A stretch of 64,000 nt of DNA from a virus. Taxonomy: Duplodnaviria; Heunggongvirae; Uroviricota; Caudoviricetes. The stretch is taken from the IMG/VR virus record IMGVR_UViG_3300037455_000372, positions 11,710 to 75,709 of that record. One strand, 5' to 3'. How positions within the stretch are numbered: position 1 is the first letter of the stretch; each line of letters starts with the position of its first letter. Shown one piece after another: positions 5,048 through 55,505 of the stretch. The notes below the pieces were generated by a model. It was not told the DNA's origin. It searched no databases and was given only the letters and a program-made list of their open reading frames with translations. Both the position numbers and the translations under genes were made by a program.

Positions 5048-6349
5048 TTGTTTATGAAGACGGTTAAACTTACAATATGCAACGAAGTTGATGTGCTGGA
5101 TGATATGAGAATATTCAGCAGTATCGTTCGCATCGCGTTTAACCGTTTCCAAGATGGAATGGACGAAAAAGAAGTCCGCGCCTACTGCAATTCAAGGTTC
5201 AACCACAACAGCTGGTTCATCCAGTGTGCCATCAAGGAAGGTGCTGCACTGTACAAGCTGAATGGTAGTAAGCATATCTTGTTCGGTGGCAAGAACAACC
5301 TACGCCAATATATGCGTGGGATCATAGACAAGGCATCGTTCAAGTATCGCCGTATGTTACCGATAGGAATCCAAGGCGAGAAACAGCGTAAAGGGAATCG
5401 CTTGTTCTCGTTCGACTTTGAAACCCAACGGATTGTATACAAGCCGAACAAGGAAACCCACGTAGAAATCAAGTTCTTGCCGATGCGGAAGAATATCGCC
5501 GAAGAACTGTCCAAAGTACAAGAACTTGCACAACAGAACAATATAACGGTTTCCGTTAAGCTCTCTGATAAATATGTATGGCTTACCTATGACGAGACCT
5601 TAATCAAGGATGAACGATACATAAAGCTACGATCTAAGCGGGTGCTTGGTATAGATATGAACCCGAACTATATCGGGTTGTCTATCATAGAGTTCGATAA
5701 GAATGACGAGTTCAATGTATTGCACAAGCAAGTCTTTGATTTAAGACAGCTTACCGTTTCGTCCAGTAAATCGAGTACAGATAGCAAGTCCAAGTATCTA
5801 ACTAACAAGTTGAAACACGAGACTATTGCCATTGTCCATAAAATCAACAAGCTGGTTAATGTGTGGAAGTGCAAGACGGTTGCGATAGAAGATTTAAGCA
5901 TAAAACCGTCCGACATGAAGAAAGGCAAGACTTTAAACAAACTATGTAACAACAAGTGGGAACGAAACTTGTTCGTGATCAAGCTGAAAATGCTTGCTAA
6001 TCTGCATAAGTTCAATCTGGTTGAAGTCAACCCAGCGTATTCCAGTCAAGTAGGAAACATCGCCTACGGCGACGAAAATACACCAGATATGGTGGCTGCA
6101 TCTATTGAAATCGCTCGCAGAGCATACAAGAAATTCGACAAGGGATGGTTCTATCCGAAATTCAATATTCAGTTCCGAGATGAGCAATGGAAGCAAACAC
6201 TCGGTACGGTGGAAAATTGGAAAGACCTGTTCCGAAAAATCAAAGAATCGAAACTGAAATATCGGTTCCAGCTACTGGACTACGTTCAGAATGCCGTCTT
6301 TAGCAAAAACTATATTCAAAAGTGCTATTCTGTATACTCTTTTGCATAG
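5048..6349 (+). CDS. tnpB: TnpB-like RuvC-fold protein (IS200/IS605 OrfB family) lacking the zinc finger
   Basis: GIDMNPNYIGLSI (RuvC-I D), VAIEDLSIK (RuvC-II E), VNPAYSSQ (OrfB signature), PDMVAASIEIARRA (RuvC-III D); no CxxC pairs between the last two motifs; AT-rich compared with flanks. Confidence 0.7.
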   Translation: MFMKTVKLTICNEVDVLDDMRIFSSIVRIAFNRFQDGMDEKEVRAYCNSRFNHNSWFIQCAIKEGAALYKLNGSKHILFGGKNNLRQYMRGIIDKASFKYRRMLPIGIQGEKQRKGNRLFSFDFETQRIVYKPNKETHVEIKFLPMRKNIAEELSKVQELAQQNNITVSVKLSDKYVWLTYDETLIKDERYIKLRSKRVLGIDMNPNYIGLSIIEFDKNDEFNVLHKQVFDLRQLTVSSSKSSTDSKSKYLTNKLKHETIAIVHKINKLVNVWKCKTVAIEDLSIKPSDMKKGKTLNKLCNNKWERNLFVIKLKMLANLHKFNLVEVNPAYSSQVGNIAYGDENTPDMVAASIEIARRAYKKFDKGWFYPKFNIQFRDEQWKQTLGTVENWKDLFRKIKESKLKYRFQLLDYVQNAVFSKNYIQKCYSVYSFA

Positions 6350-7030
6350 TTATTTATAGTTTTGTATTTCATATATTCCTTCAAGTTCGTCCGCGACTTC
6401 GCGCATCGAGTGTTCCGCCATCCAAGTCTTGTTGTTGTCGATATAGAAGTGTACCGACTTGGACTGTTCGTAGGTCTTCCTAGAAAAATTCAAGTAACCG
6501 TCGGCACACTTGATATACAGATGTTCCGGATTTACGACCACATCTGAGTAGTACGATACTATCTGAGCCATCTGCGCCTCGAACGTCTGCTTGATGAACT
6601 GACGGACTTCGTCTCCGCCCATACCGCGAATGAGACCCTTCTCGATCAGCGAATCGACTTCGCCGCACCATAATGACACGGTTTCGGTATTATGCTCTTC
6701 GTGGACTATGCAGTTAATGTTCGGCTTGGACGTGTCGAACCCTGTAAAGACGCAGAACACGCATCCGCCAATCTTCAAGTTGCTTGTATCGTCGTGCTCG
6801 ACGCTCTTGAGACAGTTGCAGTTGATGATGTATTCGCGCTTCTCGACTTGGCACGACGGGTTGATATAGATGAACGGGTACCTCCGAGCCAGATCCAAGA
6901 GCTTTTCGTACGCTTCACGCTTGGTTTCCTCAAGCTGGAGGTTCTTGCTAACCGAAGCCAAGCTGGATTCGAGTTCTGTCTGGTGCTGCGACAGTGCAGC
7001 GATTCTTGTCATATCGTAACCATTTGCCAT
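6350..7030 (-). CDS. hypothetical protein (226 aa)
   Basis: minus ORF; stop abuts tnpB stop. Confidence 0.5.
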   Translation of the reverse strand: MANGYDMTRIAALSQHQTELESSLASVSKNLQLEETKREAYEKLLDLARRYPFIYINPSCQVEKREYIINCNCLKSVEHDDTSNLKIGGCVFCVFTGFDTSKPNINCIVHEEHNTETVSLWCGEVDSLIEKGLIRGMGGDEVRQFIKQTFEAQMAQIVSYYSDVVVNPEHLYIKCADGYLNFSRKTYEQSKSVHFYIDNNKTWMAEHSMREVADELEGIYEIQNYK

Positions 7031-10777: not shown

Positions 10778-12202
10778 ATGAAGACATATTCTGGAAACGA
10801 ACTTATAAAGGTGGCGAAGTATCGCCAGTCGGCGCAGGAATTCCTCGGCCAGCTCGAAGCAAAGGGGTTCGCCGTCGAAACAGTGACCGTCGAAGACAGC
10901 ACGGCTACTTTCCACTACAAGGCCGAACAAGACGGCCAGACCGTCTATGCTGACATCCTTGTCAAGAGCAGCAAGGGTGAAATCGGTGCCAAGGCAAAAT
11001 GCGGGTCCCGTTCCCATAAATACGAGTTCGAAAGGACGTACTATTCCAGCGAACGGTCAGATTTTTTCAAATGGATCGACTGCGTAACTAAGCTCAATAC
11101 CACGGAAGCCTTGGACGGCTCTATGTCGTTGCCTCACGACCTTTGGTATTCCATACCCAAGAACAAGGCGTTCTGTGAACGAGTGCGCAATGATTTGCTG
11201 CCGCTCACCAAATGCGACTATCAACTGAATAACTTGGCAAACCTAGTACATATGCCGGACGACCAATATAACTTTGGTATATCGATCGGGGCTTTTCCGC
11301 AACTTGTCTACAGCGCACAAATCAACGACTTTGTCCGAGACCCGCAACATCCGGAACTTTTTATTGATATCGGCATCACTAGCAGACAGTCAGGCTTCAT
11401 AACAATTAAGTGCTACGATTTCGACCCTCGTGGAAACGATTTGAAGCGCAAGATGTACCCTGAGACCAAGCTGGTTGCGGTGAAGAACCATACGCCAGAT
11501 AACGGCGAGTATATCTACCATACGGACTACGAAACCGCGCTGAAACTCGTCAAGGAGGCCAAAGACCGTCTCTGGGCTATTTACGACGAAGAAGCCAAGC
11601 GTCACGGAATTCCAGAAACTTGGAAGGAGGCTACCGGGTGGACTACTGACGGCCCGGTATATCCGGAAGGTTCCTCCGCTGGCGAAAGTATTACCAAGAA
11701 GCGCGATGACGCTCGCGCAAAGCTTATCGAGCAGAACTTGCGCGTCATCAAGGCTCAAGTCAGCCGTCGCTGCGACGCATCACTGGAAGATACCTTTCCG
11801 GGCGCACAGTATCTCGACAAGGTACCCAAATGGAGAGAGGAGAGCATCCTCCACGGAAACCAGTATTACTACGAGGCTTACGCCACTATTCCGTACAAGT
11901 TCCCAAACATCAAGGGTTCCAAAATCGCTTGGCAAGACAAGGTCATAGAGATTACCATCACCTATGACAAGTCATTCGACCGTTTCACCATTTCGTACAG
12001 AATCCCGTTCAAGTTCGCTTGTATGTGCGGCGTTTACGACTGGTTCTACGAAGCCAAGAAGCACGATACTGAAAAGATGATGATTATCAAGAACTCCGGC
12101 AGAGCCACCCACACGGATATTGGCTCCTCCGGCTTCAGGTACATCAAGCAACACCTCGACGAATTGAAGCAGTTCGCCGAGTACAAGGGATTCAAGGAGT
12201 GA
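10778..12202 (+). CDS. hypothetical protein (474 aa)
   Basis: long + ORF, tightly packed operon. Confidence 0.55.
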   Translation: MKTYSGNELIKVAKYRQSAQEFLGQLEAKGFAVETVTVEDSTATFHYKAEQDGQTVYADILVKSSKGEIGAKAKCGSRSHKYEFERTYYSSERSDFFKWIDCVTKLNTTEALDGSMSLPHDLWYSIPKNKAFCERVRNDLLPLTKCDYQLNNLANLVHMPDDQYNFGISIGAFPQLVYSAQINDFVRDPQHPELFIDIGITSRQSGFITIKCYDFDPRGNDLKRKMYPETKLVAVKNHTPDNGEYIYHTDYETALKLVKEAKDRLWAIYDEEAKRHGIPETWKEATGWTTDGPVYPEGSSAGESITKKRDDARAKLIEQNLRVIKAQVSRRCDASLEDTFPGAQYLDKVPKWREESILHGNQYYYEAYATIPYKFPNIKGSKIAWQDKVIEITITYDKSFDRFTISYRIPFKFACMCGVYDWFYEAKKHDTEKMMIIKNSGRATHTDIGSSGFRYIKQHLDELKQFAEYKGFKE

Positions 12203-38306: not shown

Positions 38307-38984
38307 TTAACCCATATCGGCACCCTTATAAGACGGTATCACATAACCGTCGTTAGGATTGACAAAAAGCTTCTTTTCCCCATTAAGCGTCTTCTTCACA
38401 AGGTCAACCGCATCGGCCTTATTGATCACGCAAGGATTCTTCTTGTGAGTAGCCCAAGAATAGCAACGGTCACGCGTCTGGTCATCGTTAATGAACACAT
38501 AGCGATGGCCGAAATCGTCTACGTGTACCGTCGACTTGAATGACTGCACCCATTCACGGTTGTGTTCAACCGTAAACGGATTGTCACACAATACGTAGAC
38601 GTTCCACAAGATGTCACCTTCATTCATCTGGTTCTCGTCCAGTCGGTTCAAGTCAGTCTGGAAGATGATTTTCCCAGCCGGAGGAGTAGATGCGGACTTG
38701 GCACGGCCTTTCTTCACGTCGAAATCCGCAGGGACGATGTCCAAGAAGATGTTCAAGTTCACGCAGCCATATCGTGCGATAAGCGTAGATTGGTTCTGGT
38801 TAACCTTGTCAGCTTGCAAAAGCATCTGTCGTAAGTCTTCGGCGGAGTATTCCTTGCCGCCGACGGAAACCTTTGAACCGAAGTCCAACGTGGCCACATA
38901 GGCTACGTAACGATTATACTCGTGGTCGGCCACGATAGTATAAGTACGGTTAGGAACTGGATAAGAAGTGTTAATCGCGTACAT
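38307..38984 (-). CDS. hypothetical protein (225 aa)
   Basis: minus ORF. Confidence 0.5.
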   Translation of the reverse strand: MYAINTSYPVPNRTYTIVADHEYNRYVAYVATLDFGSKVSVGGKEYSAEDLRQMLLQADKVNQNQSTLIARYGCVNLNIFLDIVPADFDVKKGRAKSASTPPAGKIIFQTDLNRLDENQMNEGDILWNVYVLCDNPFTVEHNREWVQSFKSTVHVDDFGHRYVFINDDQTRDRCYSWATHKKNPCVINKADAVDLVKKTLNGEKKLFVNPNDGYVIPSYKGADMG

Positions 38985-40204
38985 TATTTCCCCTTGGCTT
39001 TCTCTTCGGAAGCCTTGAAATTGTAAATCGGCTTGATGGTCGTTATGATATCAGCCGTCTCTTGGATGTTACGGACGATCTCGCCCATCGGCTTGTAGGC
39101 CATCGGCGACTCGTCGATAGTGCCAGAACCAACACATGTCGTGTAGATACCTTCCATCGAAGACTTGAACGCCTCCATCGTCAAGGTCTCCTTCGCCTTG
39201 GAACGAGACATCAAACGTCCGGCACCGTGCGGTCCGGAGAAGTTCCACTCTTCGTTGCCCTTACCGCGAACCAAGAGCGAGCCGTCCCTCATATTCATCG
39301 GAATCAAGGCGACCTCGTCCTTCTGCAAGGAAATGGATCCCTTGCGCAGAATCATATTGTCCAAGTCGATGTAGTTATGCACGGTACAGAACTTGTCCAA
39401 GATGTGATGCTTCTTGATGCCCATACAGTCGATGATGACATCCATCATCGCCTCACGGTTCCACCAAGCGAAATCCTGAGCAATCTTCATATCGTGCAAG
39501 TAGTTCTGCAGCAATTCGCCTTCCAAGTAGGCCAGCTCGTCCGGAATCGGACACTTTGCCGCTTGGTTCGCCTTCAAGACCGTCTCAATCTCGGACTGGC
39601 GGCCCTGAGCCTTCAACCGCTCGATAACCTCTTGCTTCGTCTGACGCTGGTTCTTGTGGTACTTGATTGCTTCCTTCTGGTAGAAATTACACACCTCAAT
39701 ACCCAAGTGGCGCGAGCCGGAATGAATTACGATGTATTTATTACCATCGGAATCCACATCAATTTCGCCGAAATGATTTCCCGAACCAAGAGTCCCAATC
39801 GATAACATCAGTTTTTCGGCATTGACTGGAGCAATCAATTCGTCCAAAGCAACACGTTCAGTAAAGCGGTGCTTCTTCGTACGGTGGTTCATCCCAGACG
39901 GAATTTCGTTATGCCACACCTTGTCGAACTTCGGCAAGTCGAGGATGCAGTCCTTCGAGACCTTCATCACGAGCATACCACACCCGATGTCGACGCCGAC
40001 CAAGTTCGGCACGACACGGTCGACAATCTTCATCGTCAACCCAATAACACAGCCAGTACCGGCGTGGCAGTCCGGCATAATGGCGAAATGAGAACCTTCA
40101 GCAAACTTCTGGTTCATCAAGTTCAAAATCTGCTTGTAGGCGGCATCTTCCAAGATGTCAGTATACACCTTCGCCGTGTTAAACTTTCCTACGATTTCAA
40201 TCAT
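38984..40204 (-). CDS. rtcB: RtcB-family RNA ligase (3'-phosphate/5'-OH)
   Basis: MPDCHAGTGCVIG, GSGNHF, NFSGPHGAGR motifs in RtcB order; start set to MIEIVGKF (AGAGG RBS) because promoter motif 40229-40239 lies inside the longer ORF. Confidence 0.8.
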   Translation of the reverse strand: MIEIVGKFNTAKVYTDILEDAAYKQILNLMNQKFAEGSHFAIMPDCHAGTGCVIGLTMKIVDRVVPNLVGVDIGCGMLVMKVSKDCILDLPKFDKVWHNEIPSGMNHRTKKHRFTERVALDELIAPVNAEKLMLSIGTLGSGNHFGEIDVDSDGNKYIVIHSGSRHLGIEVCNFYQKEAIKYHKNQRQTKQEVIERLKAQGRQSEIETVLKANQAAKCPIPDELAYLEGELLQNYLHDMKIAQDFAWWNREAMMDVIIDCMGIKKHHILDKFCTVHNYIDLDNMILRKGSISLQKDEVALIPMNMRDGSLLVRGKGNEEWNFSGPHGAGRLMSRSKAKETLTMEAFKSSMEGIYTTCVGSGTIDESPMAYKPMGEIVRNIQETADIITTIKPIYNFKASEEKAKGK

Positions 40205-40208
40205 AATT

Positions 40209-40478
40209 CTAACCTCTGTAATTGGGGTAAATATAGCAACACGGAGGATAAATGTCAATACGCCAATCGCCTAATTGGTATGGCAAGTCCTTGGTCATTC
40301 GCATATACTCTTTCATCGGGTCTACCGGGTCAGTAAACATATTCTTGTCCATCGCCGGGACTGCTATCAAGACCAGAAGCATCGAAGTCCACAACGCTGT
40401 GCGCCTAATAGTACACTTCAACGCAACCAGAAAGGTTACCGTAAACCAAATAAGTGCCAATACCGCTTGATCTAGCAT
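40209..40478 (-). CDS. small membrane protein (89 aa, two TM segments)
   Basis: hydrophobic helices; minus ORF between operon members. Confidence 0.4.
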   Translation of the reverse strand: MLDQAVLALIWFTVTFLVALKCTIRRTALWTSMLLVLIAVPAMDKNMFTDPVDPMKEYMRMTKDLPYQLGDWRIDIYPPCCYIYPNYRG

Positions 40479-41071
40479 TCAGATATCGTAGCCTTCACGT
40501 CCATCGCCAACAGAGCCGCCGTATAGAGTACGTCTTCATCTTGAGAAAACTGCTTCATAGCCGTCACGAGCGACAATGCCGTATTGTTGTACTTCAGCGC
40601 ACGGACGGCACCCATATCCTTGATACCGCCATCCATAGAGCACGCCATCAATTCGAGGTTGCTGCTAATCGCAACATCTGACAAAAACGCGTAGCCACCC
40701 CCACTAATTTCAACACCAGTTGCTGGCTCAGGAAAATCGATTACTAAGCCTTTAGCACCATCAATACCGGCCATCTTATAAGCAATCAGTATGCTCTGAA
40801 CAAGCTGTTCACGCACTCCTGACTTGCAGCTGAACAAGTCGGTAAGCCTTCCATTAAGTCCTTCCACCACAAACAATATCAACAGTTGCGCAAGCTCGGT
40901 AAAAGTTTCGATCTTGTCCAAGCTGTCGTAGGTACACCAAGGAATATGAACCAAACCTTCTTCATCAGGTTTCGGAAATTCAATCGGGTCACGAAGGTTT
41001 CTATCACCGATTGAAAAACTATGTTCCGAAGACGAATTGGTTTCGAAAACCCCATTACGCATTGTTTCCAT
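40472..41071 (-). CDS. paralog family 2 protein (N-term METMRNGVFETNSSSEH)
   Basis: same signature as 37246 and 37852 genes. Confidence 0.55.
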   Translation of the reverse strand: METMRNGVFETNSSSEHSFSIGDRNLRDPIEFPKPDEEGLVHIPWCTYDSLDKIETFTELAQLLILFVVEGLNGRLTDLFSCKSGVREQLVQSILIAYKMAGIDGAKGLVIDFPEPATGVEISGGGYAFLSDVAISSNLELMACSMDGGIKDMGAVRALKYNNTALSLVTAMKQFSQDEDVLYTAALLAMDVKATISEC

Positions 41072-42509
41072 CGAATACTCCAGTGGCGACTATCGCCTTT
41101 GTAAGTTTGTCGATTACCGGCACGGTCACGCTGTTACCGATAAGCTTCATCCATCTCTGTCTAGTAGGAGGAAGCTCGAAATCCTCCGGGAAGCCTTGGA
41201 TGCGGCAAGCTTCCTTGTTCGTGATCTTACGGTAATTCTTATCCAAAGCGATATGCTTCAAGAATTCCGCCTTGCTGTTATGGGGCAAGTCGACCATAGC
41301 GACGTAATCGTTCGTATCGCTCGCTACCATAGTCGGGAAGATGTTGCACGATCTGAGGAACACCCGGTAGACACCGTTGATGCCAGTGCTGACCTTGGAA
41401 TTCTTCAAGTCGTAACGGACTTCCGCAACGCTCAACACACCTTCCTCAACCAGTTTCTTGATGGTTTCGATAACCACTGACCGGCTGAACTTCTTCAGTG
41501 CCGGTTGCTTGAAAATCTCCGGCAGACAGCGACCCTCTTCACAAGCCTTGATGACACTGCATATTGGAAGGTTCAAGTCCCCGCATTTTCCGACACCACC
41601 ATTGTAGGCATAGCGGTAGTCGACTCGGCGTATGATGTTCATCCTTACCAGAGCTGTCAACGACCTAAACAAGTCGGCCTTGTTGATATCCGGAAGCAAG
41701 TCGCCGATATGGTCGAACGACATCGGATTGCCGTCTTGCGGACCGTACTTCGACTTGCGGCGGTTCCTCATTATGGCCTCACAAATCCGTCGCTGGTTGT
41801 CCGACGTATTGGTGATTTCCCAAGAGTGAATCGTGGTCGCGCCGTCCCTAGCGTCGTTGAAAACGTAGTAGTCGTTCTCGCCGGTCGCGTTCTTGGACAA
41901 GCTGCGTGACGCCGACTTGACCTTGCTCATATCGACATATTCGCCGGTAAGAATCTCGTGCATCGTGAGCTTGTTCGGAGTCGGTTCTGGAAACTTGAAC
42001 TTCTCAAGCATAGCCGGATCGCGGAACCCAACAATGTACACACGCTCTCGCATCTGCGGAGAACCGTAGTCGAACGAGTTCAGAACCTTCCACGCCGCGT
42101 GGTACCCGGCTTCCTCGATTCTGGACAAGATGTACTGGAACGCCTCGATGTTGTGCTTGTCGGTCAACCCCTTAACATTCTCGAACAAGAAAGCCTTCGG
42201 CTGGCTCTTCGTCAAGAGGTAGATGGTATCGTTCCACAGCTGGCCACGGTCGTCATCAAATCCGAGACGCTTTCCAGCAACAGACCACGACTGACAAGGC
42301 ACACCGGCGGTTATGAAATCCACGGACGGAGGGTCCACTATCTTCGTGATATCGCCCAAGTTCTTGTCCTTGGACATCTTATGGTTGATACAGTAATACT
42401 CGATGGCGTCCTTGGCGACTTCGGAGAAGCCGACGCACTGACCGCCGTTGTTCTTGGCGGCAATGTGGAACCCACCTATACCAGCAAACAAGTCTAAAAA
42501 CGTGAACAT
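41055..42509 (-). CDS. dcm: DNA (cytosine-5)-methyltransferase
   Basis: FLDLFAGIGGF (motif I), GVPCQSWSVAGKR (motif IV PCQ), ENVKGL (motif VI); start trimmed to MFTFLD because the longer ORF overlaps tRNA-Arg. Confidence 0.8.
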   Translation of the reverse strand: MFTFLDLFAGIGGFHIAAKNNGGQCVGFSEVAKDAIEYYCINHKMSKDKNLGDITKIVDPPSVDFITAGVPCQSWSVAGKRLGFDDDRGQLWNDTIYLLTKSQPKAFLFENVKGLTDKHNIEAFQYILSRIEEAGYHAAWKVLNSFDYGSPQMRERVYIVGFRDPAMLEKFKFPEPTPNKLTMHEILTGEYVDMSKVKSASRSLSKNATGENDYYVFNDARDGATTIHSWEITNTSDNQRRICEAIMRNRRKSKYGPQDGNPMSFDHIGDLLPDINKADLFRSLTALVRMNIIRRVDYRYAYNGGVGKCGDLNLPICSVIKACEEGRCLPEIFKQPALKKFSRSVVIETIKKLVEEGVLSVAEVRYDLKNSKVSTGINGVYRVFLRSCNIFPTMVASDTNDYVAMVDLPHNSKAEFLKHIALDKNYRKITNKEACRIQGFPEDFELPPTRQRWMKLIGNSVTVPVIDKLTKAIVATGVFDGNNA

Positions 42510-42521
42510 ATAAACCCTAAT

Positions 42522-42593
42522 ACACCCGGCGAGAGTCGAACTCGCGACCTTGCCTTTCGGAGAGACACACTCTTCCAACTGAGCTACGAGTGC
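42522..42593 (-). tRNA. tRNA-Arg (anticodon CCG)
   Basis: acceptor GCACTCG/CGGGTGT (two GU), anticodon arm TGTCT-CTCCGAA-AGGCA, T-arm GCGAG-TTCGACT-CTCGC. Confidence 0.6.
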
Positions 42594-43071: not shown

Positions 43072-43163
43072 TGGACCGACTCAGACTCGAACTGAGAAGT
43101 ACATTTTACTGTACGTGTGCCGGGTTATGAGTCCGGTGCCTTAACCAATTTGGCGATCGGTCC
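43072..43163 (-). tRNA. type-II-like tRNA (long variable stem-loop GTACA-GTAAAA-TGTAC) with anticodon CAT
   Basis: acceptor GGACCGA/TCGGTCC perfect, T-arm CTCAG-TTCGAGT-CTGAG, anticodon hairpin CCGG(A)-CTCATAA-(C)CCGG; about 92 nt. Confidence 0.5.
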
Positions 43164-45655: not shown

Positions 45656-47689
45656 CTATTCCAGAGAAGCTACCCAGTCGTTGTAGCTCGCGTCACTGGG
45701 CATACGCCAGTCGGCACGAGGAGACAGCGACAACGTACCGACCTTCGGTCCGTCAGGGATGCAACTGCGCTTGAACTGCTGGGTGAAGAAACGGCGCAAG
45801 AAGAGTTCAAGAGCCTTCTTCAGCTCGTCGTGCTTGTCCCTGCCGAACGCATATTCGGCCAGATACAGCATCTTCGACGGCGTGGCACCGTACTTCACGA
45901 AGTGGTACAAGTAGAAGTCGTGAATATCGTAGGATCCGAGGATGCTCTCCGTCTTCTGCGCAATATTGCCGTTTGCGTCAGCCGGAAGCAGCTCAGGAGA
46001 TACCGGCGTGTCCAAGATGTCTCTGAGAACATCGGCCAGATTCTTCTTGCTGTCATCGCCTTCGCCAATCATACGGTCGACAATGCTGTACTTGTATTCG
46101 TTGTCGGCCTTGTCGGCATACCAGTTCACGATATAACGAACAAGCGTCTTCGGAATGTCGCAGTTCACCGAGTACATCGACATATGGTCGGCGTTATAGG
46201 TACACCAGCCAAGAGCGATTTCGGACAAGTCTCCGGTTCCGATAACCATACCTTGTTCCTTGTTGGCCAAGTCCATAAGAATCTGGGTACGTTCACGAGC
46301 TTGCGTATTCTCGTATGTCACGTCGGTAACCTTCGGATCGTGTCCGATATCGTCGAAGTGCTGCATACAAGCCTTGGAAATGTTAATCGTACGGAGTTCC
46401 ACACCAAGAGCCTCAGCCATTTCTACGGCATTATTCTTGGTACGCTTGGTTGTACCAAACCCAGGCATTGTCACCGCAAGGATGTCGGAAACCGGTCTGC
46501 CCAAGAGCTTGTACGTCTCGTATACGACCAGCAAGGCCAACGTAGAGTCAAGACCGCCAGACAACCCGATTACGGAACGCTTCACTCCGGTTTCAAGACG
46601 CTTGGCAAGGCCAGCACACTGGATATTGAAGATTTCACGGCAACAGTCATTGCGAACATTGGCAGCACTCGGCACAAACGGAGTCGAAGAAACATAGCGG
46701 TATTTCAGCTCCTTATTTGTCGGAACTGGGTCAATATCGCGGAATTTAATGGGGTGATAAACACGAAAACGGTTAACAACATCGCTATGTCCGAAATCTT
46801 GGAACGAACCTTCGCTGATACGCTGCATATTCAAGCGAGCCGCGTCAATATCTGCATAGATAATCTCGGTATCGCGAGAGAACTTATTGCACTCGGCCAT
46901 AAGGCTGCCGTTCTCGGCAATCATCAGGTGGCCGCTGCAAACCATATCAGTTGTCGATTCGTGAACACCAGCGGAGGCGTACACGTAACCAGCCATACAA
47001 CGGGCGGACTGATTCGTCACAAGGTCGCGACGATAGTTGGCCTTGCCTACCAATGCGTCACTGGCAGACAAGTTCAGAATCACGTTCGCACCGGCAAGAG
47101 CAAGTTCACCACTCGGCGGAGCCGGAGTCCACAAGTCTTCACACAATTCTACGCCGAGGCGTAATTCTGTATTGTTGGCAAACCCAAGCAAGTTGGTAAT
47201 TACCGGTTCATAGGCACCGACCCGGCACGTAAGAGCGTGACCGAACTCGTCACCCTTGAGCAATTCATAGCCGCTAGAAAAATGACGTTTTTCGTAAAAT
47301 TCGCGCTGGTTAGGCAAGTGAATCTTAGGCGTTACCGCGACAACCGATCCATTTTGGATAAGCACGGCGCAGTTGTACAAACGACCGAAAATCCGAAGCG
47401 GCGCACCCACAGCAATGATGACGTTTTTAAACGTATCACTGTTCATTTGGGTCATCCGGCAAATGTCAGTAATACCGTCGATTGTCTTCTGAAGAAGCGT
47501 CTCTTGATGGAAGAGGTCGTTACAAGTATAACCGGTGATACTCAGTTCCGGGAATACGACAACCGTTGCGCCGTTCTTTACGGCTTCCTTGGTCGCTTTC
47601 TTGATTTCAGCCACGTTGTATTCAGTATCTGCCACCTTGAGCTTGGGGCATACTGCAGCAAATCTGTAAAATCCGAATCCGTTATTCAT
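45656..47689 (-). CDS. nadE: glutamine-dependent NAD+ synthetase (CN-hydrolase + NadE domains)
   Basis: N-domain nitrilase-type FPELSITGY / K / LCEDLW triad; C-domain PP-loop GLSGGLDSTL; 677 aa typical for the two-domain enzyme. Confidence 0.8.
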   Translation of the reverse strand: MNNGFGFYRFAAVCPKLKVADTEYNVAEIKKATKEAVKNGATVVVFPELSITGYTCNDLFHQETLLQKTIDGITDICRMTQMNSDTFKNVIIAVGAPLRIFGRLYNCAVLIQNGSVVAVTPKIHLPNQREFYEKRHFSSGYELLKGDEFGHALTCRVGAYEPVITNLLGFANNTELRLGVELCEDLWTPAPPSGELALAGANVILNLSASDALVGKANYRRDLVTNQSARCMAGYVYASAGVHESTTDMVCSGHLMIAENGSLMAECNKFSRDTEIIYADIDAARLNMQRISEGSFQDFGHSDVVNRFRVYHPIKFRDIDPVPTNKELKYRYVSSTPFVPSAANVRNDCCREIFNIQCAGLAKRLETGVKRSVIGLSGGLDSTLALLVVYETYKLLGRPVSDILAVTMPGFGTTKRTKNNAVEMAEALGVELRTINISKACMQHFDDIGHDPKVTDVTYENTQARERTQILMDLANKEQGMVIGTGDLSEIALGWCTYNADHMSMYSVNCDIPKTLVRYIVNWYADKADNEYKYSIVDRMIGEGDDSKKNLADVLRDILDTPVSPELLPADANGNIAQKTESILGSYDIHDFYLYHFVKYGATPSKMLYLAEYAFGRDKHDELKKALELFLRRFFTQQFKRSCIPDGPKVGTLSLSPRADWRMPSDASYNDWVASLE

Positions 47690-48950: not shown

Positions 48951-49024
48951 AGGCCATTTCCTCTGACTTGAATATAGCAATTTGCACCGATCTTGTCAAC
49001 ACTAAAATATCGAAATAAAACAAA

Positions 49025-49587: not shown

Positions 49588-49725
49588 AAAAAGACAAGGT
49601 GCTATTCGCTTTACTTATCTGAGCCTAGTTCAGAGGTATAGGTTGTGTTGCTGTAAGCACCTTTAAACTCTTTTTGTCAAACATCAGATTCAGTCTCGCT
49701 GAATCATTACGAACCAAATATAGAT

Positions 49726-50274
49726 TTAGATTTTGAGGTTGTCAAGGGGTTTTGGTGAATTTTTATCGTTTTTCTTTCCGCCCAGCTTACCGTTTATATA
49801 ATTGGTCGCAATCGCGAAAACTGCGCCAGACGCCATTCCGATAAAATGGTTCATATGGCCGATCCCATCCGCCTTTCCGGTCGCCATAAGCTCCTGACCG
49901 CCATACGTCACCACGACAAACAATCCGCATAAAGAGAACATATGCTTGGAATCGGCCATCAAGTTCAGCATAAACAGTGCGAACACGAACGCCGACATAC
50001 CGATGCCGTACTGGTTCACCAGTCCCTGATACAGCGAATCCACCCAGCAAGTGAACAAGAAGGCCAGCAGATAGCTAACCTTGCCATAGCTGCGCTCCAC
50101 CATCGGACTCAAAACGGCAAACAGCATACTGTTGTTAAGCCAATGGTTAAAGTCGCCGTGCATAAAGGCCGACGTGACCATATTGTACGGAATGTCGCTC
50201 TTGCATAGCAGACCGACTAAGGACAGCACAATGAAAGTGACCGACAGTATCTCGTCCTTGAGCACATTAAGCAT
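49726..50274 (-). CDS. rhomboid-like intramembrane protein
   Basis: polytopic; HGDFNHWLNNSMLF (H..H..N block), GIGMSAF (GxSx), GHMNHFIGMASG (His region). Confidence 0.5.
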   Translation of the reverse strand: MLNVLKDEILSVTFIVLSLVGLLCKSDIPYNMVTSAFMHGDFNHWLNNSMLFAVLSPMVERSYGKVSYLLAFLFTCWVDSLYQGLVNQYGIGMSAFVFALFMLNLMADSKHMFSLCGLFVVVTYGGQELMATGKADGIGHMNHFIGMASGAVFAIATNYINGKLGGKKNDKNSPKPLDNLKI

Positions 50275-51138: not shown

Positions 51139-51576
51139 TTACCCCTTATAGAGCTGATACTTTTTGCTCAAAGTACGACTAGTCTCGTCGGGCAACGGCT
51201 TGAACCAGATTCCGACGCGGCAATACTTGTTGCCTTTCTCGTCTACGGCCTCCGGAGTCAGCTCCGTCAAGCAAGCGTCGTCGATAAAGTCATAGTCGGT
51301 TCCCTTGACCAGACCCATTTCCTTGGCGACATCCTCCACCTTCATCAAGTGGTTAAGATTCTTCGCCTCGCAGATGGTCTTGACGAACAGACCTTGGATA
51401 TACTCTTCCATCGTCTTTGTATCGAGTTCGAACGTCACTTGGTATACACCGTCGTCCTCCATCGAATTCGTGGAAATAAGGCGGGTCCAGTAACCCTCGG
51501 CACAGTGAGCCACCATCGCGGCAAGCTTACCGGCAGACAAATTCAAGTCCTTTCGGATGATAAATAAACGGCGCAT
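51139..51576 (-). CDS. PTH2-family peptidyl-tRNA hydrolase-like protein
   Basis: FIIRKDLNLSAGKLAAMVAHCAEG matches the PTH2 v.R.DL.m..GKiaAQ..HA opening block. Confidence 0.55.
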   Translation of the reverse strand: MRRLFIIRKDLNLSAGKLAAMVAHCAEGYWTRLISTNSMEDDGVYQVTFELDTKTMEEYIQGLFVKTICEAKNLNHLMKVEDVAKEMGLVKGTDYDFIDDACLTELTPEAVDEKGNKYCRVGIWFKPLPDETSRTLSKKYQLYKG

Positions 51577-52505
51577 TACTTCTCCGTCTTGTTATTAGTC
51601 TTCAACCATTCTTGGAAATACCAGAGCTGTCCACAACCGCCTCCGATGTCGTCCTGACCCGCCGGGTTGAACACACGGAGCGACACGCCACGGGAAAGCA
51701 AGGCATCCTTGAAGTTATTGATAACCTCAAGCTGACGGTCGATACTGGCGGCCACCGTCTCGTCCTTCGAGCAGATGACGCTCAAGGTCGTCTCCCATAC
51801 CTTCGGGTCGAACAGGTCTACCAAGCGTTCGGCATCCTCGACGGCGTTGTTGCCTTCGTGGACACAGTAGTTGTAAAACGGCTTTCTACCCACATAGGAC
51901 GCCCACATCTCGCCAAGAGAAGCGATCTGACGCAACGTGCTGGTCTTGGTCGGAATGAGCTTCGAACGGTTCTCGTCGGTGCTCTCGTGGACGGAGAACT
52001 GCAGTCCAACCTTGTCGATTTGCTTGGACAATTCGATGAACGACGGCATATTGTGGAGCGAGTCCCAAGTCGGTGCCGATGTCGACACCAGCAACGCGGC
52101 GTTCGGATATTTCTGGTTGAGACGCTTGATGGCACATTCCAGATTGATGTAGTTCATAAACGGCTCGCCCATCGACATAAACATAATCTGGAACTTCTTG
52201 ATTTCCTCGGTATGCGTGTCCTTGAGTACGGAGTCGGCGATCGCAGTCTCGACTTGCTGGACAATCTCGGACGCAGTCAAGTTGCGGACGAAGAACTTAC
52301 CCGTACCGCAGAAGGTACAGCCGACCGGGCAACCGCTCATAACGGAACAACAGATGACCGTGCGTTCCTTGTAGGATCCGTAACGGTACAGAACAGCCTC
52401 GGCGATAGCCGCCTTGCTATGGATGCCCGCATCTTCTTCCTTGGACCATTCGAAAACGTATTTCTTTACATTGGTGTCCGACGACTGGAAAACCTTGTAC
52501 TGCAT
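51576..52505 (-). CDS. RlmN/Cfr-family radical-SAM RNA methyltransferase (N-terminally short, 309 aa)
   Basis: CPVGCTFCGTGKFFVRNLTASEIVQQV (CX3CX2C plus RlmN FNRNL..EI..Q block), IMFMSMGEPFMN (GMGEP), C-terminal GGGCGQL (conserved methyl-carrier Cys). Confidence 0.75.
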   Translation of the reverse strand: MQYKVFQSSDTNVKKYVFEWSKEEDAGIHSKAAIAEAVLYRYGSYKERTVICCSVMSGCPVGCTFCGTGKFFVRNLTASEIVQQVETAIADSVLKDTHTEEIKKFQIMFMSMGEPFMNYINLECAIKRLNQKYPNAALLVSTSAPTWDSLHNMPSFIELSKQIDKVGLQFSVHESTDENRSKLIPTKTSTLRQIASLGEMWASYVGRKPFYNYCVHEGNNAVEDAERLVDLFDPKVWETTLSVICSKDETVAASIDRQLEVINNFKDALLSRGVSLRVFNPAGQDDIGGGCGQLWYFQEWLKTNNKTEK

Positions 52506-52557
52506 ATTTACCTCATTTTTGTAGAAATATAGGTATCTGCAGCACCGTTGTCAAGAC

Positions 52558-53009: not shown

Positions 53010-53086
53010 GAGCACTCGGACAGGCTCGAACTGTCGATCATGCGGTTGCGGCGCATTGCCTTTAAAAACCAACTTGGCTACGAGTG
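53010..53086 (-). tRNA. tRNA-Cys (anticodon GCA), extended D-loop
   Basis: acceptor GCACTCG/CGAGTGC, anticodon arm ATGCG-CCGCAAC-CGCAT, T-arm GACAG-TTCGAGC-CTGTC. Confidence 0.55.
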
Positions 53087-53091
53087 CTTAA

Positions 53092-53164
53092 ATATGGCGA
53101 CCCAGACTCGAACTGGGGTAAACGCTTTTAGGAGAAGCGCACATATCCAACTATGCTATCGCCA
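53092..53164 (-). tRNA. tRNA-Arg (anticodon CCT)
   Basis: acceptor GTGGCGA/TCGCCAT, anticodon arm CGCTT-CTCCTAA-AAGCG, T-arm CCCAG-TTCGAGT-CTGGG. Confidence 0.6.
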
Positions 53165-53168
53165 CATA

Positions 53169-53255
53169 ATACCGACGCCCAGACTCGAACTGGGATGGGA
53201 CTTGATGTCCCGGACGATTAGAAGTCGTCTGCACTATCCAATTATGCGACGCCGG
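53169..53255 (-). tRNA. type-II-like tRNA (18-nt variable stem-loop GGGAC-ATCAA-GTCCC) with anticodon TCT
   Basis: acceptor GCCGGCG/CGTCGGT, D-arm GCAT-AATTGGATA-GTGC, anticodon arm GACGA-CTTCTAA-TCGTC perfect, T-arm CCCAG-TTCGAGT-CTGGG. Confidence 0.5.
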
Positions 53256-53262
53256 CAAAAGA

Positions 53263-53598
53263 CTAACGCCTTACCGGTCTACACACGAACATACATCGGT
53301 CGCTTCCCCATAAAGTCTTGGGAGCATTACCGTCAAAACCACGGATGTCAATCGTGACAATACCGTCGGAATACTGGAAACCGTTGCCGTCGGCAATGCC
53401 TTCCACCTTTTCCGTGCCGGATTCAAATACAGAATAACCGAACGAGTTGCCTTCCCCGGCAACGTCGGAACCCTTCTGGCGAAGATACAGCTTCGCCTTT
53501 TCCATATCGCACCCGGTAGCCTCCAGTGCTTCCTTGCACAGAGCTACGCTGACTTGCGTCTGGTCACGGAGTTCCTTAATCTGTTCCAATGTTGCCAT
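53263..53598 (-). CDS. EF-Ts N-terminal (EF-Tu-binding, UBA-like) domain protein
   Basis: MATLEQIKELRDQTQVSVALCKEALEATGCDMEKAKLYLRQKG parallels EF-Ts N-term ...VKELRERTGAGMMDCKKAL.E..GD.E.A...LR.KG; only ~110 aa, no EF-Ts core; AAGGAA RBS before ATG 53598. Confidence 0.55.
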   Translation of the reverse strand: MATLEQIKELRDQTQVSVALCKEALEATGCDMEKAKLYLRQKGSDVAGEGNSFGYSVFESGTEKVEGIADGNGFQYSDGIVTIDIRGFDGNAPKTLWGSDRCMFVCRPVRR

Positions 53599-53656
53599 AG
53601 TTATTCCTTGCTTAATTCCTACAGAGTGACACTTCGGATAACCCCTCAACTTCGGA

Positions 53657-53872: not shown

Positions 53873-54098
53873 AGTCTTCTTCCTTCGGCGGTTCCATCGT
53901 TGCCACCAGCTTTATACCAACCAGTTTAGGCTGTGGCGGCAGATTCTTCGGCGTCAAATCGAGTGCTAGATAACAGGGTTCTGTAAAAGTGAACTTATAC
54001 TCGAACTTTTCCGGAGGATATCTCCTCTGGACTTCCGCTATTTGTGCTTTCGCTCGTGGTGACAAGCGATTCTCGATTTGTTTATCCATATCCGTCAC
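53865..54098 (-). CDS. hypothetical protein (77 aa)
   Basis: minus ORF. Confidence 0.4.
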   Translation of the reverse strand: MTDMDKQIENRLSPRAKAQIAEVQRRYPPEKFEYKFTFTEPCYLALDLTPKNLPPQPKLVGIKLVATMEPPKEEDYG

Positions 54099-54172
54099 GA
54101 AAGACTTGAACTTTCACGCCTCGCGGCACCAGATCCTAAATCTGGCGGGTCTACCTGTTCCCCCAGTAACGG
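54091..54172 (-). tRNA. tRNA-Leu (anticodon TAG), type II
   Basis: acceptor CCGTTAC/GTGACGG, anticodon arm CCAGA-TTTAGGA-TCTGG, long variable arm, T-arm GAAAG-TTCAAGT-CTTTC. Confidence 0.6.
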
Positions 54173-54175
54173 GAA

Positions 54176-54246
54176 TTGAGCTACCAGGATTCGAACCTAG
54201 AATACCGGAATCAAAATCCGATGTGTTACCGTTACACCATAGCTCA
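54176..54246 (-). tRNA. tRNA-Gln (anticodon TTG)
   Basis: U1-A72 acceptor TGAGCTA/TAGCTCA, anticodon arm TCGGA-TTTTGAT-TCCGG, T-arm CTAGG-TTCGAAT-CCTGG. Confidence 0.6.
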
Positions 54247-54260
54247 GAATAAATATATTA

Positions 54261-55505
54261 CTATTCAGGTTTAATGTCAAACTGGTTCAATTTACGTCGG
54301 AAATACTTCCCTTTAAATTCATCTGGAAACCGGTTTAAAGTCGCTTCAATAACTCTTTTGGTCAAATGAGTTACTTGTTCGACTTTTCCTACCCAACCAA
54401 ATTTCATTAAATCGACACCGCTATTCAGTATTAACTCTTTTCGGTGATTCCATTCTAAGTTAGGCACCCCCTTTCCATCGATATGCCCATCTACACGTAT
54501 TAAACCATTTTGTTCAGAAAGTTTCCGCTTACTCGCATATTCTTCGATTTCAACCTTACGCTTTTCTGAATTTCTAGGTGTAGTTTTATGTTTTTTAAGT
54601 ATAGCACCTTGATTAACTGGAACATAAATCTGAGGCAGAGTATTCGTAGTATTCGAAATAAATGCCTTAATGTAGGATGCAACGATTTGTTTACGATCAT
54701 CATCCGACAGTTTCTTATACAATTTCCAACGAATTCGTCCGATTAGAAACCACCCATTCTTAGCTAATTCGGCAGTCCGGTTTGCGTCATACTCCAACCC
54801 ATCTGGTGTGTAATGAGATTCGCCATCAACTTCAAAGTATACTTTATTTGTTAAATTAGCAAAATCCAATAAATATCCACACGCACGATAGTTATTCCGC
54901 CACACAACGGTAGAATTCAATTCCTTTACTAATATATCATAAAAATACTGTTCAGCATAACTACGATGAATATGCGGATTAACCCACGTAGAACTACCAC
55001 GACCGTCTGCAATTTGTTTCTTCCGAGATTCGCTCAATTTATGACGCGTTTCTTCTGAACAAGGTTTCCTTTTCAATGTTCCATCAAGAATCCGTTGTCT
55101 AACATTCAACAAAGTTTTACGATGAATATCTGGGTCATACGTTCTACCCAAAGAATCAACCGGTAACTGACGTTTCGCATCACATTCCAAATAATGTTTA
55201 GCTAACTTACGCTTGCTTTCACAAACACCCAAACAATATTTACAGACCCAACCCCGGCTAGATTCAGTAGACCCTTTATGTCTATACTTATCCGAACAAT
55301 ATTTACCGTGTTCATCTATCCTGTGCCTATCACGATCTCGGCTCGTTTTAAAAAAGTTATGGCATATCGGGCATTCCCACGAATATGGTTTAGGTCTATT
55401 TTTGATAATATCCGCGTGCTCAATATGATGATGTTTACGCAATTCGTCTCGTGTACGGCAAGGAAACCCACATTTCGGACATATCCATTTCTTTTGTAAC
55501 TGCAT
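54261..55505 (-). CDS. homing-endonuclease-like protein: N-terminal C2H2 zinc fingers + C-terminal Vsr/DUF559-like PD-(D/E)xK nuclease fold
   Basis: CPKCGF..H..HH and CPICHNFF..H..H fingers; YFEVDGESHYTPDGLEYDANRTAELAKNGWFLIGRIRW resembles Vsr-like endonuclease core; strongly AT-rich versus flanks; variant promoter GTATAGCAAT 55531-55540. Confidence 0.5.
   Translation of the reverse strand: MQLQKKWICPKCGFPCRTRDELRKHHHIEHADIIKNRPKPYSWECPICHNFFKTSRDRDRHRIDEHGKYCSDKYRHKGSTESSRGWVCKYCLGVCESKRKLAKHYLECDAKRQLPVDSLGRTYDPDIHRKTLLNVRQRILDGTLKRKPCSEETRHKLSESRKKQIADGRGSSTWVNPHIHRSYAEQYFYDILVKELNSTVVWRNNYRACGYLLDFANLTNKVYFEVDGESHYTPDGLEYDANRTAELAKNGWFLIGRIRWKLYKKLSDDDRKQIVASYIKAFISNTTNTLPQIYVPVNQGAILKKHKTTPRNSEKRKVEIEEYASKRKLSEQNGLIRVDGHIDGKGVPNLEWNHRKELILNSGVDLMKFGWVGKVEQVTHLTKRVIEATLNRFPDEFKGKYFRRKLNQFDIKPE

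Follow-up and report, generated by a model that had tools for sequence, protein, structure and literature searches.

The elongation factor EF-Ts (tsf; TIGR00116, PF25025 plus PF00889), a protein of 150-310 residues, joins an N-terminal domain to a core whose subdomains N and C contact EF-Tu domains I and III, and D80, F81, I125 and G126 are listed as vital (PMC9529903). In the M. tuberculosis EF-Tu·EF-Ts complex, R13 (α1) and K24 (α2) of the N-domain are bonded to EF-Tu P114/E155 and D144/D145 (PMC9529903). The EF-Tu-binding α-hairpin is common to EF-Ts and to L7/L12 (PMC4739770, citing Wieden 2001), and both proteins use the helix-D surface of EF-Tu (PMC4739770; Kothe 2004, cited in PMC3299993). 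Here we describe a 111-residue protein, encoded within a dense tRNA array of a huge rumen phage (Caudoviricetes), that carries the EF-Ts N-domain without the core and, after a short linker, an unrelated β-domain. The stretch analyzed, referred to as the window, covers 64,000 nucleotides (positions 11,710 to 75,709 of the IMG/VR record IMGVR_UViG_3300037455_000372).

Phage proteins that have an EF-Ts head and no complete core are already annotated. Genes for 'elongation factor Ts' are reported from huge phages, and elongation factors of phages are assumed to help sustain translation (PMC7162821); the article text consulted makes no comment on truncation of the tsf genes. In the supplementary GenBank files of the huge-phage genomes (Al-Shayeb et al. 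2020), the genes labeled 'tsf' that we examined encode proteins of 75, 84, 102 and 307 residues. The 75-residue protein pairs a coiled coil with the N-domain, and the 84-residue protein has the N-domain and a tail; in the protein of 102 residues the N-domain is followed by β1-β2 and TDFV, and that of 307 residues is a full EF-Ts. BFVD holds a 59-residue 'Elongation factor Ts-like protein' from Sinorhizobium phage phiN3 (A0A0F6WCQ0), as well as an 85-residue relative (A0A345BRQ1). Like the protein described here, all of these short proteins hold the EF-Ts N-domain without the full core and are encoded by large or huge phages, whose genes for translation are discussed in PMC7162821. They differ from it in what is attached to the N-domain, which is either nothing or another extension (a coiled coil, a helical tail of short length, or β1-β2 with TDFV), and its β-domain is present in none of those that we inspected. 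Separately, a 132-residue open reading frame (ORF) at positions 5746-6144 of locus L017 (IMG/VR UViG_3300012352_000117, 77 kb), which has no tRNAs nearby, carries N-terminal CxxC zinc-ribbon motifs and a C-terminal EF-Ts-N-like module. In this virus, the EF-Ts head has been fused a second time and independently. We found no paper that discusses truncated phage EF-Ts proteins or tests their function, and the joining of the N-domain to the β-domain, with a fixed place in tRNA arrays, seems not to have been described before.

The N-terminal domain is homologous to that of EF-Ts

Residues 1-44 of the protein are homologous to the EF-Ts N-domain (coordinates of all features are given in Table 1). 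The NCBIfam model TIGR00116 (tsf) matches residues 3-44 with E = 2.5e-9, and the Pfam model PF25025 (EF-Ts_N) matches residues 5-42 with E = 3.4e-4 (21 bits, short of the gathering score of 33.2); the whole-protein TIGR00116 score of 36.8 bits is below the curated cut-off of 104.05. Most family members have a precomputed PF25025 match, which is marked 'weak' wherever its strength is stated. EF-Ts N-domains are also the top PDB sequence matches, and identity to the N-domains of genuine short EF-Ts proteins reaches 63%. Profile-profile comparison with hhalign matched the 26-member family to a 31-member EF-Ts alignment with a probability of 99.4% (E = 1.8e-21).

Two AlphaFold2 models were calculated. 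The first had a mean predicted local distance difference test score (pLDDT) of 64.3, with N-domain blocks at 75-85; the second, built on a 26-sequence alignment, had a mean pLDDT of 80.6 and a predicted template modeling score of 0.48. When the first model was compared to the PDB with Foldseek, EF-Ts ranked first, and superposition on 1aip_C and 2cp9 gave root mean square deviations of 0.9-1.2 Å over 44-46 columns. The UBA-like EF-Ts domain that the initial annotation had recognized in this ORF is thus borne out by both profile and structure.

Thirteen columns of the EF-Ts N-domain are invariant or nearly so, and the family keeps ten of them; it departs from EF-Ts at Gly15, which is Gln in 25 of the 26 members, and in an invariant Leu at position 20. 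With the numbering offset taken from the 7vmx alignment, M. tuberculosis R13 and K24 correspond to R11 and to position 22 of the family. R11 is found in all 26 members, and position 22 is always Lys, His or Arg (20, four and two members, respectively). Because the domain is homologous to the EF-Ts N-domain and these contact residues are conserved, EF-Tu is, judging from the sequence, the most plausible partner of the protein, and the EF-Tu targeting proposed by the initial annotation is plausible to that extent.

Searches with approximate E. coli queries, which covered the window and the fetched loci (for large contigs, the flanks), revealed no homologue of EF-Tu or L7/L12, and a phage-encoded partner of either kind was rejected as a candidate; host EF-Tu is therefore the only one seen. 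The C-terminal domain of L7/L12 can be considered a functional analogue for EF-Tu docking, since its helix-D-binding α-hairpin is shared with the EF-Ts N-domain. The phage protein nevertheless has no sequence-level relation to L7/L12 (a tblastn search of the window with an approximate E. coli L7/L12 query found nothing), and the two differ in fold context and in the N-terminal dimerisation domain of L7/L12. The three-helix UBA, CUE and NAC-UBA domains have only 9-29% identity to the phage protein and no match at the level of hidden Markov models. To our knowledge, the partners of those domains (ubiquitin and others) are not present in bacteria.

An orphan β-domain follows in the absence of the EF-Ts core

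Beyond the superposable N-domain, its EF-Tu-contacting Arg/Lys residues and a VAGEG-like segment that follows the domain in both proteins, the resemblance to EF-Ts ends. The phage protein lacks the core (subdomains N and C), the TDFV motif, and any dimerisation or C-terminal module. The window protein has no PF00889 (EF_TS) match, nor do precomputed annotations list one for any member of the family; those of genuine EF-Ts proteins do. The profile of the C-terminal half, aligned to EF-Ts with hhalign, shows no significant similarity (probability 0.2%, E = 0.28), and the possibility that this half is a diverged EF-Ts core was rejected on that value, and is kept only as an alternative of low probability. 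Alignments that extend past the N-domain (full-length hhalign, MAFFT and BLASTP) are inconsistent in register, and were not accepted as evidence of homology. E-T-D-F is invariant or nearly so across the EF-Ts alignment, while the column-by-column table of the family contains no T-D-F, which is conserved in neither possible register. In EF-Ts, the TDFV wedge (Asp80/Phe81) expels GDP and Mg2+. Since both core and wedge are absent, the protein is probably not a conventional exchange factor.

No helices are predicted after residue 46; instead, the second model places β-strands at residues 53-59, 62-69, 74-77, 82-85, 94-98 and 102-108. This all-β region is conserved: F53, I85, G90, P93 and W97 are invariant, and a loop carries the motif D-I-R-G-[FY]-x-G-x-x-P-x-T-x-W-G. 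The initial annotation was therefore right that an EF-Ts head is present without a core. The 'stand-alone' domain that it described is, in contrast, the first half of a two-domain protein, and 'truncated EF-Ts' applies only in that the N-domain lacks its core, because a separate conserved domain is attached to it.

The β-domain has no match in Pfam, PHROG, NCBIfam or the PDB sequences. A HMMER search of 1.84 billion representative proteins with its profile gave seven matches at E <=1e-3, two of which fall within the family: its own cluster (E = 7e-38) and a distant member, P0020 (E = 2e-4). The five others (E = 1.3e-7 to 7.6e-4) resemble repeat proteins, as judged from the three that were inspected, and were considered chance matches. 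By this profile search the β-domain is an orphan among these proteins, and we regard it as a small fold family that is new and has a well-marked conserved loop.

The gene is real and both halves are under purifying selection

An in-frame TTG is present at 53649, and the ATG at 53598 is preferred as the start codon because a Shine-Dalgarno sequence lies 6 nucleotides upstream of it. All ten related loci have the same ATG, with an AGGA/GAGG-type Shine-Dalgarno sequence at equal distance and a length of 108-112 residues. When the window was compared to two relatives by the Nei-Gojobori method, the ratio of non-synonymous to synonymous substitutions (dN/dS) was 0.14-0.15 in this frame (approximately 0.10 for the N-terminal half and 0.16-0.17 for the C-terminal half), and 1.1-3.3 in the other two frames. 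The recurrence of start, ribosome-binding site and length in ten loci, together with a low dN/dS in this frame only, indicates that the gene is real and that both of its halves are constrained.

Four database entries (P0010, P0011, P0012 and P0016) are frameshifted versions of the gene. An alternative frame is open for 63 codons at 53271-53462 on the minus strand, and P0011, P0012 and P0016 read into it. Dual coding, as hinted by the four entries, was rejected, as dN/dS exceeds 1 in that frame; for the same reason, the entries can be regarded as assembly errors or defective alleles.

The rpsB-tsf context of EF-Ts is not found for this gene, which at all ten loci lies within a dense phage tRNA array, on the same strand as every tRNA. 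Genuine short EF-Ts proteins (P0015 and P0044), in contrast, adjoin rpsB. EF-Ts proteins of 149-195 residues were considered as phage intermediates and rejected, since they are cellular genes in the rpsB-tsf context, and H16 (MT838987), although labeled 'phage', proved to be a piece of a bacterial rpsB-tsf region that encodes EF-Ts at full length. P0040 had looked like two EF-Ts N-domains in tandem, but this arrangement was rejected because it arises from a frameshift that splits a cellular tsf gene; P0040 comes from an error-rich contig in which many neighboring genes are also split (L098, positions 6001-6708; ENA ERZ25039527 contig_136821), and shows that a short 'EF-Ts N-domain' ORF from a metagenome may be artefactual. 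Locus L009 (GCA_035351655.1, labeled Candidatus Pacearchaeota, DPANN) holds a bacterial-type rpsB-tsf operon with L31 and RF-1, which suggests that this metagenome-assembled genome (MAG) is mis-binned or mis-classified; a bacterium of the candidate phyla radiation is the more likely source.

Distribution of the family

Two database searches yielded at least 26 distinct clusters at 90% identity, with full-length members of 108-114 residues that are down to 39% identical. Several clusters comprise 80-120 member sequences each, and the viral contigs that carry the family reach 464 kb. Full genomes of huge phages with a member include IMG/VR UViG_3300037455_000543 and 3300037512_000782. IMG/VR contributes six members on viral contigs of 17-424 kb, while 185,579 species genomes hold a single one, at locus L018 (NZ_JBGUHR010000018.1). 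The L018 contig, of 13.8 kb, had been assigned to a MAG of a rumen Fibrobacter; it is itself a tRNA-array fragment, probably of a phage mis-binned into that genome, and gives a weak hint of Fibrobacter as a possible host. Judging from their names, the ENA records XIEF21 and TONG22 may be assemblies from ruminant gut. No close relative of the window was found among deposited phage genomes, and most of its large ORFs have no PHROG match. One related locus, L011, shares 89% DNA identity and the same gene order with the window.

The gene is embedded in a tRNA array

ARAGORN identifies 39 tRNAs in the window, all on the minus strand, and Rfam adds one more, for a total of 40. The tRNA-Arg(UCU) that follows the gene starts 6-14 nucleotides past its stop codon in seven of the ten related loci. 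Upstream, a σ70-type promoter probably drives a unit that would comprise tRNA-Gln, tRNA-Leu, orf77, orf71, this gene, three tRNAs and orf137. A second copy (52526-52554, minus strand) precedes the RlmN-like gene, and no terminator-like site was found on the minus strand between the two promoters. Co-transcription of the gene with phage tRNAs is thus predicted. The sequence TTGACA-N17-TATATT occurs 14 times in the window (709-54280), where chance alone predicts 0.21; 12 of the copies are on the minus strand, and the phage appears to use host-σ70-like promoters across the region. Further copies lie at 49717-49745, 48971-48999 and 40230-40258, and the motif is often preceded by TTGC or TTGT, as in extended -10 promoters.

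At L012 (5975-6345) and L018 (470-840), the gene is directly flanked by tRNAs, 26 nucleotides upstream and 6-12 nucleotides downstream, so that processing by RNases P and Z would free a minimal, tRNA-punctuated message of approximately 370 nucleotides. At the position of L004 that is equivalent to 53011-53087 in the window, the tRNA is tRNA-Cys(GCA). Three minus-strand tRNAs of the window are unusually long (Arg(UCU), 89 nucleotides; Met, 92 nucleotides, 43072-43163; Asn, 90 nucleotides, 58445-58534), which suggests that these tRNAs, unlike others of their types, contain insertions, introns or long variable arms.

Several genes for RNA and translation functions share the tRNA island, together with other enzymes (Table 1). 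PTH2 recurs beside the gene in three lineages (L004, L011 and L012), and the NAD synthase fits the NAD+ synthesis genes reported in gut jumbo phages (PMC11662467). The DUF559 endonuclease inserted in the array has counterparts with the same domain types in the arrays of relatives (L004 2965-3873; L006 1-842 and 10956-12086), and these are likely homing endonucleases. An unannotated 305-residue ORF (57412-58329) also interrupts the array.

Table 1. Positions in the window of the gene, its domains and the features around it.
Feature	Position	Strand	Basis or remark
CDS, 111-residue two-domain protein	53263..53598	-	ATG at 53598, stop TAG 53263-53265; ORF list and sequence
Shine-Dalgarno AAGGA	53605..53609	-	6 nucleotides 5' of ATG; read from sequence
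Residues 1-44, EF-Ts N-terminal UBA-like three-helix domain	53467..53598	-	Helices 4-14, 18-27, 32-46
Residues 45-50, flexible linker [DE]VAG[DE]G	53449..53466	-	pLDDT <50 (second AlphaFold2 model); conserved columns
Residues 51-108, conserved six-strand β-domain	53275..53448	-	AlphaFold2 model pLDDT 82-87, dN/dS 0.16-0.17
tRNA-Arg(UCU)	53169..53257	-	5 nucleotides past stop codon; ARAGORN, Rfam 48 bits
tRNA-Arg(CCU)	53092-53166	-	ARAGORN, Rfam 49.1 bits
Further tRNA	53011-53087	-	Rfam 48.3 bits, missed by ARAGORN
tRNA-Gln(UUG) and tRNA-Leu(UAG)	54091..54246	-	Head of putative shared transcription unit; ARAGORN/Rfam
σ70-type promoter TTGACA-17-TATATT	54252..54280	-	11/12 consensus match
RlmN/Cfr-like radical S-adenosylmethionine enzyme	51576-52505	-	TIGR00048 E 6e-29, far below every equivalog cut-off
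PTH2 peptidyl-tRNA hydrolase	51139-51576	-	Pfam PTH2 E 4e-10, above cut-off
RtcB RNA ligase	38984-40258	-	In tRNA island
Glutamine-dependent NAD synthase (CN_hydrolase and NAD_synthase)	45656-47689	-	Among tRNAs
Rhomboid-family protease	49726-50274	-	Among tRNAs
C5 cytosine DNA methylase	41055-42578	-	Among tRNAs
DUF559 (Vsr-like) endonuclease with C2H2 zinc finger	54261-55505	-	Inserted in tRNA array

Possible roles at EF-Tu

We tentatively favor a role for the protein as a non-catalytic modulator or adaptor of the EF-Tu cycle, accessory to phage translation. The gene would be expressed from the σ70-type promoter together with the phage tRNAs, and the captured EF-Ts head would most likely dock on host EF-Tu, binding its G-domain where EF-Ts and L7/L12 also bind, on the surface of helix D; we infer the binding, its site and the direction of any effect from the homology and the context of the gene. 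The flexible linker would tether the phage-specific β-domain, with its R-G-[F/Y]-x-G-x-x-P loop, to EF-Tu, where it may supply a phage-specific activity or partner. With the help of such a modulator, the phage could maintain or adjust translation during the use of its own set of tRNAs.

The initial annotation proposed instead that a truncated mimic could sequester or redirect host EF-Tu. A dominant-negative protein of this kind would occupy the site of EF-Ts and L7/L12, block nucleotide exchange or ribosome recruitment, and throttle host translation. The retention of EF-Tu-contact residues along with the loss of catalytic core and TDFV is what is expected of a competitive binder, and the use of one helix-D surface by both EF-Ts and L7/L12 (PMC4739770; Kothe 2004, cited in PMC3299993) points in the same direction. 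However, the phage depends on EF-Tu for its own translation. Its island, with 40 tRNAs, PTH2, an RlmN-like enzyme and RtcB, is an investment in translation that looks built to sustain it and not to block it, and sequestration fits poorly with this context. In addition, EF-Tu makes up 6-10% of the proteome (PMC13581612), and stoichiometric sequestration would therefore be costly, requiring very high expression of a 111-residue titrator. Simple competition also leaves the conserved β-domain without explanation. We thus consider a dominant-negative mimic unlikely; given the extreme abundance of EF-Tu and the otherwise supportive island, bulk sequestration is less likely than a modulator or adaptor, while redirection of host EF-Tu is possible.

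A role in anti-defense is rather improbable. The protein would shield EF-Tu against cleavage, modification or co-option by toxins or immune effectors, or would divert those effectors; EF-Tu is indeed cleaved by Lit and by type IV Thoeris, and its GDP form is co-opted by Avs7 (PMC13581612). In our reading, the tRNAs, RtcB and PTH2 of the island resemble functions by which attacks on translation are repaired or circumvented, and the joining of the EF-Ts N-module to varied partners (the L017 zinc ribbon, the 75- and 84-residue huge-phage proteins) is typical of accessory or conflict genes. A guard nevertheless faces the same problem of stoichiometry as sequestration, and the known contacts of Lit and Avs7 are mainly with EF-Tu domains II/III or the effector loop, and not with helix D (PMC13581612).

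Equally improbable, in our estimation, is that the N-domain has been re-purposed as a generic UBA-like module whose partner is something other than EF-Tu, for example a site on the ribosome, a protein of the phage or a different translational GTPase. All sequence-level matches are specific to EF-Ts, and both the high identity to real EF-Ts N-domains and the conserved EF-Tu-contact Arg/Lys residues speak against it.

Slightly less probable again is a minimal, non-canonical exchange factor, in which the N-domain would sit on helix D and the loop D-I-R-G-[F/Y]-x-G would replace the TDFV wedge, as a compact phage version of EF-Ts activity. The C-terminal half, on its own, has no significant similarity to EF-Ts, and an alternative BLASTP register sets the near-invariant Gly67 opposite the wedge Phe. 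The protein also lacks the EF-Ts residues listed as vital (PMC9529903), as well as the subdomain for contact with EF-Tu domain III.

That the gene is a decaying fragment of a captured tsf or a mis-called, functionless ORF, as the frameshifted database entries and the similar-looking artefact P0040 might suggest, is highly improbable and effectively refuted by the selection on both halves, as well as by the start, ribosome-binding site and length kept in ten loci, the breadth of the 26 clusters and the confident predicted fold.

Implications

EF-Tu, the most abundant translation factor, is a recurrent target or cofactor of anti-phage defense (PMC13581612). One broader scenario, which we regard as doubtful, is that the protein is an EF-Tu guard or re-programmer: the EF-Ts head would target host EF-Tu, and the β-domain would either shield it from effectors like Lit, type IV Thoeris or Avs7, or drive the EF-Tu cycle in a new, non-TDFV manner suited to the phage tRNA set. 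If true, phages would be using the EF-Ts N-domain as a portable module that, by fusion, directs varied effectors to EF-Tu, such as the β-domain, the L017 zinc ribbon and the huge-phage tails.

The small, abundant and strongly conserved protein offers a compact test case for how tRNA-rich phages handle EF-Tu, and the conserved loop of its β-domain is open to mutation. The comparison also corrects the reading of huge-phage 'EF-Ts' annotations: at least some of these genes do not encode EF-Ts, but N-domain modules joined to unrelated domains, and the biochemistry to be expected of them therefore shifts from nucleotide exchange to docking or adaptor functions.
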